In this document: one piece after another, positions 24,246 through 26,136 of the stretch
Numbering within the stretch: position 1 is the first letter of the stretch
Layout: each line of letters begins with the position of its first letter
From: Escherichia phage WPEC2
Sequence record: PV691511.1
Direction: 5' to 3' (one strand)
DNA length: 64,000 bases
Position numbers and translations under genes: made by a program
The notes under the pieces: model-generated
Database searches by the model: none
What the model saw: the letters and a program-made list of their open reading frames with translations, nothing else
What the model was told of the DNA's origin: nothing

Positions 24246-24650
24246 TTATTGAAGTTTAAGTGAACCACGAAGACGTTTCTCTTGCTGATCACGGATATAT
24301 TGTGGAACCTCGTGAATTGAATCATTACCGTGCCTATTTTCAACAACTAAAGAGATAACTTGATAACCAAACTCTTCAGCAAGAGCTAGATAAGGTTTAA
24401 GTTCTTTCTCTGTGGTTGAAGTATTAGAAACAATAATCTTGTTAAGATTAGATGCCATAGCATCACGAACAATACCCTGACACCATGCGTGTGCTTTACC
24501 TACATTTTCTGGCTTCCAATCGTAAACACCACTCTCTGTGTAATGATATTGATCTGCCTCACAGATAGGCCAATAACCTTCAGAAATAATTTCTGCTACT
24601 GTAGATTTACCAGCACCTGAAACACCACGTAAAATGATAAGTTGTTTCAT
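24246..24650 (-). CDS. P-loop kinase, candidate polynucleotide 5'-kinase
   Basis: Walker A GVSGAGKST at N-terminus; size and context with ligase and phosphoesterase. Confidence 0.5.
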   Translation of the reverse strand: MKQLIILRGVSGAGKSTVAEIISEGYWPICEADQYHYTESGVYDWKPENVGKAHAWCQGIVRDAMASNLNKIIVSNTSTTEKELKPYLALAEEFGYQVISLVVENRHGNDSIHEVPQYIRDQQEKRLRGSLKLQ

Positions 24651-25583
24651 TTATCCTCCAAAAAAGTTTTCGATTTTTTCACGTCGCTCTTGCTGATTTA
24701 AAGCAGCCCATTGAATCTTCGTAAAATTATTTCGAATCCATTCTAACAAAGCGTAATATTCTTCGTCAACCATTTGTTTGGCATTTTTTGGATTATCCCA
24801 AATCAGATCCCACTTTTTATCTCCACCGCGCATAAGAAACTTCTTAGTAAGATAGTGTGGTGATTTAATTTTTAAAAGTAAGTTGAACGGATAGTTTGTT
24901 TCACGAACTACAAACCCTTCGTGTTTACAATGTTTAGACATTTCAACAACATCTGAAAACTTAACCATTGGATGAACTTCAGGACGCTTAAATTTGGTGA
25001 CAGAAGCAATTCCATCAAGAGCACCTTCAGGTAACATAAAACTTGTCCCATCAGGATTTTGAATTCTGGCACCAATTAAGTATGCACCTGGTTCTTCTTC
25101 GACAATATGCGGATCAGAAGGATCACAGATTTCAAAAAGGAAAGTTGCTTTTGCACTCTCTGTCCATTTGATGAAATGTTCTATGTCATCACACTCTGAA
25201 ACAATATGATTCTTTGCAATACTTGCAAAATCTGATTCAAGGCTTCCTGTTGTCGATACAATAAGTTGACCTTTATATACACCTACAGAGGCCATAAAAC
25301 CATTTACTTTACGAACCACATCTACAAGTTCATCCGCTGGTAGATCTGTGCCATTCTCAAAACGATTAAAAATCTTAGTGAAAGGCCAAATAACAACATT
25401 GTCATCAGCATCAACAACGATTCCGCGACATTCTAGAAGACGAGAATCAATGCTCCATAAGTTATCCCAGAAAACTTTGTTCTTATACTTAAGAACAGAT
25501 AGACCAGAATACTCTCCTTCTTTATATGTTTTCTTATGAACTAAACCTTTTTCAACCAAATCGTCGCAATTAAATTTAGCCAC
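24651..25583 (-). CDS. RNA ligase-like nucleotidyltransferase
   Basis: RKVNGF (I), FLFEIC (III), EGFVVRE (IV), LKIKS (V); flanked by kinase and phosphoesterase. Confidence 0.5.
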   Translation of the reverse strand: MAKFNCDDLVEKGLVHKKTYKEGEYSGLSVLKYKNKVFWDNLWSIDSRLLECRGIVVDADDNVVIWPFTKIFNRFENGTDLPADELVDVVRKVNGFMASVGVYKGQLIVSTTGSLESDFASIAKNHIVSECDDIEHFIKWTESAKATFLFEICDPSDPHIVEEEPGAYLIGARIQNPDGTSFMLPEGALDGIASVTKFKRPEVHPMVKFSDVVEMSKHCKHEGFVVRETNYPFNLLLKIKSPHYLTKKFLMRGGDKKWDLIWDNPKNAKQMVDEEYYALLEWIRNNFTKIQWAALNQQERREKIENFFGG

Positions 25584-25584
25584 A

Positions 25585-26136
25585 TTATTCTCCTTTGATT
25601 ATTTTGTGATGGTCTACAGTCACGATATCTCGTTTACTCATCATAGAAATTATCTCATCAAAATGCAAGATTTTTCCGTGTGCATCCCAACCCACATCTA
25701 ACATTTTACCATAAGCTTCATCAGGGAAAGATCCGTGGGAATGCCCGTGTAGCATGATTGATCCACGACCTTGTTTATTCCAGGAGGCCATAGGGTAATG
25801 GCTTAAGACGAAGAACAGCTTCTGATATTTCACTTCGTCATAATACACCACTTCTCCATACTCTGCAAGCACTTCTTGGTGTTTGCTGTAGTCATGGTTC
25901 CCAACACAGTAGGTGATATCTCCTTGGAGACGGGAAGCAATTTTACGGGTATCTTCTTCAGTTCCGAAACAGAAGTCGCCCAAATGCCACATCTTAACAC
26001 CAGGAGTAGTAGCACATTTGTTCCATGCTTCGATCAAGGCTTCTGTCATGTGGTCCATATCTTCCCACGGACGATATTCAGGAGCAAACTCTCGAATACG
26101 TTTATGCATAAAATGCAAATCGCTTGTAATAAACAT
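25585..26136 (-). CDS. calcineurin-like metallophosphoesterase, candidate polynucleotide 3'-phosphatase
   Basis: DLHF, HLGDF, GNHD motifs. Confidence 0.65.
   Translation of the reverse strand: MFITSDLHFMHKRIREFAPEYRPWEDMDHMTEALIEAWNKCATTPGVKMWHLGDFCFGTEEDTRKIASRLQGDITYCVGNHDYSKHQEVLAEYGEVVYYDEVKYQKLFFVLSHYPMASWNKQGRGSIMLHGHSHGSFPDEAYGKMLDVGWDAHGKILHFDEIISMMSKRDIVTVDHHKIIKGE

Follow-up and report, generated by a model that had tools for sequence, protein, structure and literature searches.

A stretch of 64,000 nucleotides from Escherichia phage WPEC2 (sequence record PV691511.1), referred to here as the window, contains three co-directional minus-strand open reading frames (ORFs) that fill exactly positions 24246-26136. 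They encode a metallophosphoesterase (MPP), a ligase and a small kinase, which we read as a predicted RNA heal-and-seal pathway of separate proteins. A first-pass annotation had placed three consecutive genes for a phosphoesterase, a ligase and a kinase at these positions and had quoted their motifs; all of these were found, with the catalytic motifs intact. The trio is laid out as follows.

26136..25585, minus strand: metallophosphoesterase (MPP), 183 amino acids (aa); PF00149, PF12850, phrog_547
25583..24651, minus strand: Rnl1-clade ATP-dependent RNA ligase, the predicted sealing enzyme, 310 aa, GTG start; PF09511, phrog_562
24650..24246, minus strand: stand-alone P-loop kinase, a predicted RNA 5'-OH polynucleotide kinase, 134 aa; PF13671, phrog_2071

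Each of the three ORFs has its own start codon and Shine-Dalgarno sequence. The stop codon of an upstream 118-aa ORF overlaps the ATG of the MPP gene (TAATG), one base separates the MPP stop from the ligase GTG, which has an AAGGAG Shine-Dalgarno sequence upstream, and the kinase ATG directly follows the ligase TAA, with its GGAGGA Shine-Dalgarno sequence lying within the ligase ORF. The trio is translationally coupled within one early or middle minus-strand transcription unit. A scan for promoters and terminators across 22-30.8 kb performed no better than shuffles (33 vs 27.7; 8 vs 4.9) and did not indicate the limits of an operon.

At the DNA level, 126 phage records matched the segment from 22 to 28 kb. 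Identity is 100% with Escherichia phages WPEC4 and Mt1B1_P17, and 98-99% with other myoviruses of the genus Phapecoctavirus (phAPEC8-like, Stephanstirmvirinae). Several of these records already label the trio as 'phosphoesterase/metallophosphatase', 'putative RNA ligase' and 'ATPase / putative polynucleotide kinase'. Collinearity with WPEC4 ends at about 33 kb, and the WPEC4 annotation was used for 1-33 kb only.

The family matches of all three proteins are far beyond chance. Profile searches against the Rnl, Pnk and calcineurin-phosphoesterase families, which the first-pass annotation had suggested, returned PF09511 RNA_lig_T4_1 for the ligase (E 3.8e-15; 56.8 bits, cut-off 28.3), PF13671 AAA_33 for the kinase (E 2.7e-10) and PF00149 Metallophos for the MPP (25.1 bits, cut-off 21.5), which also matched PF12850. 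Matches to PHROGs ranged from 2e-56 to 3e-70 (kinase, phrog_2071, 2e-56; MPP, phrog_547 phosphoesterase, 5e-56; ligase, phrog_562 RNA ligase, 3e-70). The motif residues of the trio were invariant in homologue alignments down to about 36-50% identity. PADLOC gave no meaningful match for any protein of the module.

The phosphoesterase carries the motifs SDLHF (residues 5-9), LGDFCF (52-57), VGNHD (78-82), H113 and GHSHG (131-135). Its metal-binding positions (D6-x-H8, G53-D54, G79-N80-H81, H113, G131-H132 and H134) were invariant in 34 homologues, down to 36% identity, and by these motifs the protein is a binuclear metallophosphoesterase of the calcineurin-like superfamily. When the MPP family profile was compared with the PDB, the closest match was Aquifex aq_1665 (1xm7, E 3.5e-23); other MPPs appeared only at E >0.04, and neither the Clostridium Pnkp phosphatase nor lambda phosphatase was matched at E up to 1. 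These two enzymes are themselves binuclear MPPs and hydrolyse RNA 2',3'-cyclic phosphates (PMC2190708, PMC3675462). Because of this precedent and the gene context, we predict by analogy that the phage MPP is a 3'-end healing enzyme, acting on RNA as a 2',3'-cyclic phosphodiesterase or as a 2'- or 3'-phosphatase.

The ligase contains the nucleotidyltransferase motifs in order: I (K92-V-N-G95), III (F150-E151), IV (E222-G223) and V (K238-x-K240). Among 25 homologues at 49-86% identity, R53-G54, PFTK70, K92-x-N-G95, F150-E151, E222-G223 and K238-x-K240 were invariant; because all catalytic residues are invariant across the family, catalysis appears to be under selection. A PDB search with the single sequence found nothing, and a family profile was needed. 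That profile had T4 Rnl1 as its sole match (2c5u, 9do4; about 3e-10), aligning residues 48-238 with T4 51-249. Alignment by hhalign with full-length T4 RnlA gave 96.6% probability over residues 29-272 (T4 33-266) and then ended. R53, K70 and F72 align with T4 R54, K75 and F77, and counterparts of T4 R54, K75, F77, K99, G102, E159, E227, G228, K240 and K242 are all kept, with Asn94 standing at T4 D101.

An AlphaFold model of the ligase (predicted local distance difference test score, pLDDT, 91.5) placed T4 Rnl1 and the fungal Trl1-LIG domain on top in Foldseek (7e-13 to 4e-11), followed by archaeal Rnl3 (~1e-9), by Rnl2 and Rnl5 (~1e-5) and by DNA ligases (7e-5 or weaker). The Clostridium Pnkp ligase was absent from the top 50 fold matches and from the PDB profile matches. 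Sequence and modelled fold thus identify the protein as an Rnl1-clade RNA ligase, not a T4 RnlA orthologue, and as the predicted sealing enzyme of the trio, with K92 as the putative adenylylated lysine.

The kinase has a P-loop, GVSGAGKST, at residues 9-17 (K15, S16, T17), and 31 homologues share the P-loop, D33, N76-T77, E104, R106 and H113-x-V-P without variation. Here too a family profile was needed, as the single sequence returned only P-loop noise from the PDB. The best match of the profile was Pnkp1 of the Capnocytophaga Pnkp1-Rnl-Hen1 complex (4xrp, 9e-7), and further matches included two stand-alone RNA 5'-OH kinases of Mucorales fungi (9d8a and 9drz). T4 Pnk (1e-4) and the kinase domain of Clostridium thermocellum Pnkp (5e-4) were full-length matches. 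The PDB entries with full-length matches were 4xrp, 1ly1, 1ltq and 4gp7, whereas gluconate, nucleoside and adenylate kinases matched around the P-loop only. D33 aligns with the T4 general base D35. In a Foldseek search with the kinase model (pLDDT 92.2), Clostridium and T4 polynucleotide kinase chains made up 19 of the 20 top matches (TMq 0.68-0.79). On the profile and model comparisons, the protein is a predicted RNA 5'-OH polynucleotide kinase.

We then examined whether the three genes travel together. An IMG/VR scan with the ligase alignment gave 343 relatives, from which we took the best 80 loci (39-88% identity, numbered with the prefix L) for analysis with hidden Markov models of the three families; the ligases were collapsed at 60% identity into 31 clusters to discount relatedness. 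Within 3.5 kb of the ligase, an MPP was found in 65 of the 80 loci, a kinase in 63 and both in 50; some of the loci without a partner gene are short or cut by a contig end. The full trio was present in 23 of the 31 ligase clusters. An MPP lay within 4 kb on the same strand in 27/31 clusters, compared with only 10/31 for the next ORF family. Gene order was not fixed: MPP-ligase-kinase occurred in 32 loci and kinase-ligase-MPP in 15, and the orders ligase-MPP-kinase, MPP-kinase-ligase and kinase-MPP-ligase were also seen.

Kinase and ligase were fused in 12 viral loci (L047 at 7539-8831; L048, L050-L055, L058, L060, L061, L063), as proteins of ~430 aa with the kinase N-terminal. Pfam places AAA_33 at residues 16-115 and RNA_lig_T4_1 at residues 184-367 of such a fusion. 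No MPP was found within the flank of these 12 loci, and a fusion of all three activities was never seen among the relatives; kinase-ligase fusions were the only kind. A Campylobacter concisus contig (L090, 5407-6945; 31% identity) carries a kinase-ligase fusion followed directly by an MPP, and fusions overall measure ~430-510 aa. A search of bacterial and archaeal genomes (one genome each of 185,579 species) yielded 5 matches to the ligase family, and an MPP adjoins the ligase in 5/5 of the matches, with a kinase also in 2/5.

The ligase family is essentially phage-restricted. It occurs in 607 cultured-phage records (Escherichia 198, Pseudomonas 175, Vibrio 83, then Klebsiella, Acinetobacter and others), whose carriers include phi92, rV5, FV3, Mydo and PAK_P1-like phages. 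Since the genes stay linked while their order changes, and kinase and ligase are in places fused, the trio cannot be regarded as unrelated genes. This conserved linkage, which holds across very diverged phages, is the strongest evidence obtained.

The first-pass annotation had also pointed to a tRNA island about 5 kb away. It lies on the opposite strand, outside the operon, and can be regarded as genomic context with candidate substrates.

30763..32688, plus strand: tRNA island, 11 genes (ARAGORN 10, Rfam 11), 4.6 kb from the trio

The island contains Met, Arg-TCT, Ser-GCT, Tyr-GTA, Asn-GTT, Thr-TGT, Gly-TCC, Gln-TTG, Pro-TGG, Ile-GAT and a further Met tRNA. The tRNA-Tyr(GTA) gene, at 31460 to about 31544-31547 (plus strand), was missed by ARAGORN, scored 39 bits with Rfam and is annotated in WPEC4. 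All 11 genes were called as ordinary and uninterrupted, with no intron noted. Next to tRNA-Tyr(GTA) stands a tRNA with an Asn anticodon (GTT; 31554-31639, plus strand) whose features are atypical of tRNA-Asn: the body is of class II and measures 86 nucleotides, close to the length of the nearby tRNA-Ser(GCT), the variable arm is long, and the D-loop resembles that of Ser/Leu tRNAs. The recurrence of tRNA genes near the module in relatives, weighed below, fits a tRNA connection. Separately, phage tmRNA genes were observed ~4-8 kb from the ligase in three loci (L050, 14177-14579; L052, 10399-10801; L068, 16407-16729).

Other genes around the trio share its strand.

26652..27008, minus strand: cyclic-phosphate-processing receiver-like protein (cREC), probable module accessory, 118 aa; PF20274, 1.6e-13
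26136..26492, minus strand: second 118-aa protein, possible module member; phrog_839 at 7e-47; TAATG overlap with the MPP start
21258..21983, minus strand: MazG-like nucleoside triphosphate (NTP) pyrophosphohydrolase, 241 aa; PF01503 at 2.7e-6, phrog_671
23503..22376, minus strand: ATP-dependent DNA ligase, 0.7 kb downstream of the trio

The cREC gene, which the first-pass annotation had missed, lies 0.5 kb upstream of the trio, and its product keeps the acidic WLDD and FDND positions. Proteins of this type are predicted to open 2',3'-cyclic phosphates (PMC7824862, PMC9503650), and a cREC gene adjoins the ligase or kinase in closer relatives (L001-L003, L005-L012, L017, L019). The phrog_839 protein had no Pfam, NCBIfam, PADLOC or PDB match; one record names it 'anti-restriction nuclease', and homologues near the ligase were found in close relatives and L064 only. 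The MazG-like gene, 3.4-7 kb downstream of the ligase in L001-L003, L005-L015, L017 and L019, is tied to the trio more loosely. Genes for RdgC and an exonuclease lie further downstream than the DNA ligase. Between kinase and DNA ligase, an unannotated 63-aa ORF (23709-23900, minus strand) encodes two Cys pairs (C-P-C, then CNTCG) and is zinc-ribbon-like.

In the rV5-like locus L007, the interval between kinase and DNA ligase holds a 258-aa SIR2 protein (PF02146, 3e-22; 9724-10500, plus strand), and SIR2 was present in ten more loci (L008-L015, L017, L019). No sirtuin was found in the whole window, where the best tblastn match of the L007 SIR2 protein had an E of 0.11. Ligase, cREC, kinase, MazG-like protein and MPP are all encoded within 21258-27008 on one strand, and the same families occur together in L005-L012, L017 and L019. 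Phapecoctaviruses therefore carry a sirtuin-less version of this neighbourhood, with cREC upstream of the MPP.

Elsewhere the company of the module differs. In Pseudomonas-type and other phages it is often flanked by NAPRTase-like genes (10 clusters), PRPP-synthetase-like genes (8 clusters), and Macro and HD_4 genes (for example L029, 11641-13527; L018, 10117-11055; L035, 3047-3574; L022, 6459-7049). These NAD-salvage-type, Macro and HD_4 neighbours suggest a shared counter-defence island. Within the window itself, a separate minus-strand set at 33109-40041, not collinear with WPEC4, encodes SprT-like, TerC, Macro-domain (weak, E 2e-4) and ComF-like PRTase (PF15610, 2e-41) proteins, together with a weak HAD-like match and a radical-SAM activase, and resembles the 'Ter-system' clusters of large phages.

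Family membership, intact active sites, translational coupling, conserved linkage and the fusions are observed; the enzymatic activities, RNA as the substrate (most likely tRNA anticodon-loop breaks) and a role in counter-defence are what we infer. At roughly 70% probability, the trio is a phage RNA heal-and-seal pathway of separate proteins used against RNA-cutting host defences. The trigger would be a host defence or toxin that cuts RNA, such as the anticodon nucleases PrrC and RloC, other HEPN enzymes or metal-independent RNases. The MPP would turn the resulting cyclic phosphate, or a 3'- or 2'-phosphate, into a 3'-OH, and cREC may open the cyclic phosphate beforehand. The 134-aa kinase would then move an NTP phosphate onto the 5'-OH. 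Finally, the ligase, adenylylated on K92, would transfer AMP to the 5'-phosphate (AppRNA) and seal the break. The activities expected by the first-pass annotation agree with these in silico predictions: a 3'-end-healing phosphoesterase, a 5'-OH polynucleotide kinase, and a ligase for RNA rather than DNA. Its naming of tRNA as substrate and of anticodon nucleases as trigger we share as an inference.

Several observations weigh against this interpretation. The match of the ligase ends at T4 residue 266 of 374 and the protein itself ~38 residues on, leaving it without most of the C-terminal helical domain of T4 Rnl1 (about 255-374). Work from the Shuman laboratory reportedly identified this domain as the tRNA specificity determinant of T4 Rnl1, and because most of it is missing, tRNA specificity cannot be transferred from T4 Rnl1 to the phage ligase. 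The ligase also has Thr112 at the position of T4 K119, and scores 24 bits against the T4 RnlA equivalog model TIGR02308 (cut-off 242). In T4 Pnk, the arginines R38 and R126 bind the acceptor nucleotide and the NTP beta-phosphate. In the phage kinase, H36 lies three residues past D33 as T4 R38 lies past D35, and HMMER placed R38 within an insertion; R106, which is invariant, was aligned with T4 R122, not R126. The alignment of the lid arginine is ambiguous, loop alignments being unreliable at 19% identity. The only close structural relative of the MPP, aq_1665, is a protein of no known function. Genes for tRNAs occur within a flank of up to 8 kb in 41/80 loci and 17/31 ligase clusters, a frequency that has no control-gene comparison and comes from phylogenetically related loci. 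We found no biochemical or genetic study of any member of the three families; experimental work on phage-type MPP, ligase and kinase repair was found only for T4, Clostridium Pnkp and Trl1, and nothing on an RNA ligase of Phapecoctavirus or phAPEC8.

A further point against the RNA interpretation is that polynucleotide kinases act on DNA too, as do those of T4 and mammals that share the fold of the phage kinase. The kinase and MPP could mainly heal DNA ends, at nicks with 5'-OH and 3'-phosphate termini left by host nucleases, and so serve the DNA ligase next to them; this would put the module in DNA repair and replication with the Rnl1-like enzyme on the side. The proximity of the ATP-dependent DNA ligase, the RdgC and exonuclease genes that come next, and the recurrence of DNA ligases ~1.8-5.3 kb from the RNA ligase are in keeping with such a role. 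However, a DNA ligase family gene was within 4 kb in only 8/31 clusters, compared with 27/31 for the MPP, and the kinase has the Rnl1-type RNA ligase, not a DNA ligase, as its fusion partner and almost constant neighbour. By sequence and fold the ligase is nearest to tRNA-repair and tRNA-splicing ligases, with DNA ligases many orders of magnitude weaker. The MPP does match PdeM, a ligase-associated DNA-damage-response phosphoesterase, at E 0.0024, but its 17 bits are far under the cut-off of 150. We consider DNA-end healing improbable.

There was also a possibility that the module acts on small molecules. The MPP, with cREC and MazG, would degrade immune signals derived from cyclic nucleotides or ADP-ribose, and the kinase would be a nucleotide kinase, in an anti-signalling or NAD-metabolism counter-defence. 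cREC has been proposed to act on cyclic ADP-ribose derivatives as well as on RNA ends (PMC7824862, PMC9503650), the kinase has been termed a 'nucleotide kinase' (Iyer et al., PMC9503650), and both the sirtuin inside the cluster of rV5-like relatives and the NAPRTase-like, PRPP-synthetase-like, Macro and HD_4 neighbours in other phages would suit such a function. It would leave unexplained why an intact RNA ligase is the most constant partner and why kinase and ligase are fused; moreover, the full-length matches of the kinase are polynucleotide kinases, those to nucleoside and nucleotide kinases being limited to the P-loop region, and none of the trio had a notable PADLOC or anti-defence family match. 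This makes a small-molecule role quite improbable. We give very little weight to the idea that the ligase is structural or otherwise outside repair, whether in tail-fibre attachment, as for T4 gp63, or in maturation or processing of the phage's own tRNAs, with the kinase and MPP as unrelated early genes. The module does lie near phage tRNA genes, and databases call the ligase family 'RNA ligase and tail fiber protein attachment catalyst'; we rejected the tail-fibre part of that name as an annotation inherited from T4 gp63, of which ~100 C-terminal residues are missing here and whose RnlA equivalog cut-off is far from reached. The invariant catalytic residues, the linkage with kinase and MPP across gene orders and fusions, and the 11 ordinary, uninterrupted tRNA genes all speak against a non-repair function. 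Taken together, all three rival explanations are weakened because the ligase belongs to an RNA-ligase clade and because kinase-ligase fusions exist.

A bolder version of the repair reading, which we put forward as tentative and rather unlikely, is that the trio and cREC define a distinct, phage-restricted pathway in >600 sequenced phages. Here the aq_1665-type MPP would heal 3' ends, and the short Rnl1, as it lacks the T4 tRNA-recognition domain, could have different or broader substrates, such as any RNA cut by HEPN enzymes, Cas13 or toxin RNases. Alternatively, the pathway may be yeast-like and proceed via a 2'-phosphate, whose removal would fall to the sirtuin in rV5-like phages and to the MPP or host KptA in sirtuin-less phages.

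For the heal-and-seal reading in general, part of the ground is already known, since public records carry annotations of the genes and this type of neighbourhood was computationally predicted as RNA repair (PMC9503650). The annotation of the trio is well supported and unsurprising to a specialist; the module is widespread and compact. Two points are of particular interest: the role of the aq_1665-type MPP together with cREC, and the targets of a ligase that lacks the T4 tRNA-recognition domain. If the aq_1665-type MPP heals 3' ends, its family would gain a first assigned function.

Defences that cleave tRNA or other RNA (PrrC, RloC, PARIS, retrons, Cas13 and others) are by now known to be common, and to our knowledge T4 Pnkp with Rnl1 is the only experimentally understood phage repair answer to them. 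If our reading is true, the module is a second answer, built from different components. Several large groups of phages that infect Escherichia, Klebsiella, Pseudomonas and Vibrio carry it, and some phages of these groups are used for therapy. A working module would give a function to the orphan MPP family and to cREC, define the defences that these phages escape, and yield tools in the form of compact, stand-alone enzymes that heal and seal RNA ends.

Comparison with known systems places these elements in context. The fungal and plant tRNA ligase Trl1 (LIG-KIN-CPD) resembles the module in that the modelled fold of the ligase is as close to Trl1-LIG as to T4 Rnl1, and in that kinase and ligase are joined in one protein in some phage relatives. 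Motif I of Trl1 is KxNG, as in the phage ligase. The best PDB matches of the kinase profile include the stand-alone Mucorales RNA 5'-OH kinases (9d8a, 9drz; PMC11571804). In contrast, the phage fusions have the order KIN-LIG rather than LIG-KIN, the phosphoesterase here is a metalloenzyme rather than a 2H cyclic phosphodiesterase, and the PDB profile search with the ligase gave no sequence-level match to Trl1.

In gene content, the locus is the sirtuin-linked RNA-repair neighbourhood that Iyer, Burroughs, Anantharaman and Aravind described in rV5/Mydo-type phages (Viruses 2022, PMC9503650, section 3.7.3), minus the sirtuin. That neighbourhood, independently read as RNA repair (PMC9503650), likewise combines a T4-like tRNA ligase, cREC, a small kinase, a MazG-like pyrophosphatase and a calcineurin-like phosphoesterase, and its ligases share 58% identity (Proteus phage Mydo) or about 48% identity (rV5-type phages) with the one described here. 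The window differs in lacking the SIR2 gene that rV5-like loci have between kinase and DNA ligase, and in having cREC upstream of the MPP instead of between ligase and kinase. The phosphoesterase, 'occasional' in that account (PMC9503650), was the most constant partner in our sample (27/31 clusters).

The first-pass annotation had described the trio as a 'split Pnkp', and the likeness to the bacterial systems, Pnkp-Hen1 of Clostridium thermocellum and Pnkp1-Rnl-Hen1 of Capnocytophaga gingivalis, is clear in the triad of 5' kinase, Mn/Ni-dependent MPP and ATP-dependent ligase (PMC3675462, PMC2190708). The kinase has its best PDB match in Pnkp1 (4xrp) and its best fold matches in the Clostridium Pnkp kinase domain, and the Capnocytophaga ligase is also a separate polypeptide (4xrp title). 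However, the phage activities reside in three ORFs and not one polypeptide, and the ligase is of the Rnl1 clade and the phosphoesterase of an aq_1665-like clade; on the two clades we rejected a 'split Pnkp' in the sense of homology. A Hen1 partner was not found: there was no methyltransferase among the nine proteins scanned in 20.3-27.5 kb or in the WPEC4 annotation of the identical region, and at 63-108 aa the small unscanned ORFs between kinase and DNA ligase could not accommodate a Hen1. Thus the part of the earlier interpretation that holds is the presence of RNA-repair-type enzymes in conserved linkage; the picture of a Pnkp divided into genes does not, and survives as a functional analogy only.

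The closest parallel is T4, in which Pnkp (PseT) and Rnl1 (RnlA, gp63) counter PrrC. Both systems are encoded by phages and divide healing and sealing between different polypeptides; the ligases belong to the same clade and keep the catalytic residues, and the kinase here shares its fold, P-loop and catalytic Asp with T4 Pnk. The expected chemistry is also shared, as predicted for the WPEC2 proteins: conversion of 2',3'-cyclic phosphate to 3'-OH and of 5'-OH to 5'-phosphate, followed by ATP-dependent sealing. The differences lie in the components. In T4 the phosphatase is of the DxDxT/HAD type and forms one protein with the kinase (PMC3592404), whereas WPEC2 has a binuclear MPP and a stand-alone kinase of only 134 aa, the genes of the trio are adjacent, translationally coupled and accompanied by cREC, and the ligase is 64 aa shorter and lacks most of the T4 C-terminal domain. 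We conclude that the module comes nearest to the logic of T4, with an MPP where T4 has a HAD phosphatase, a kinase that is minimal and stands alone, and a short form of Rnl1.

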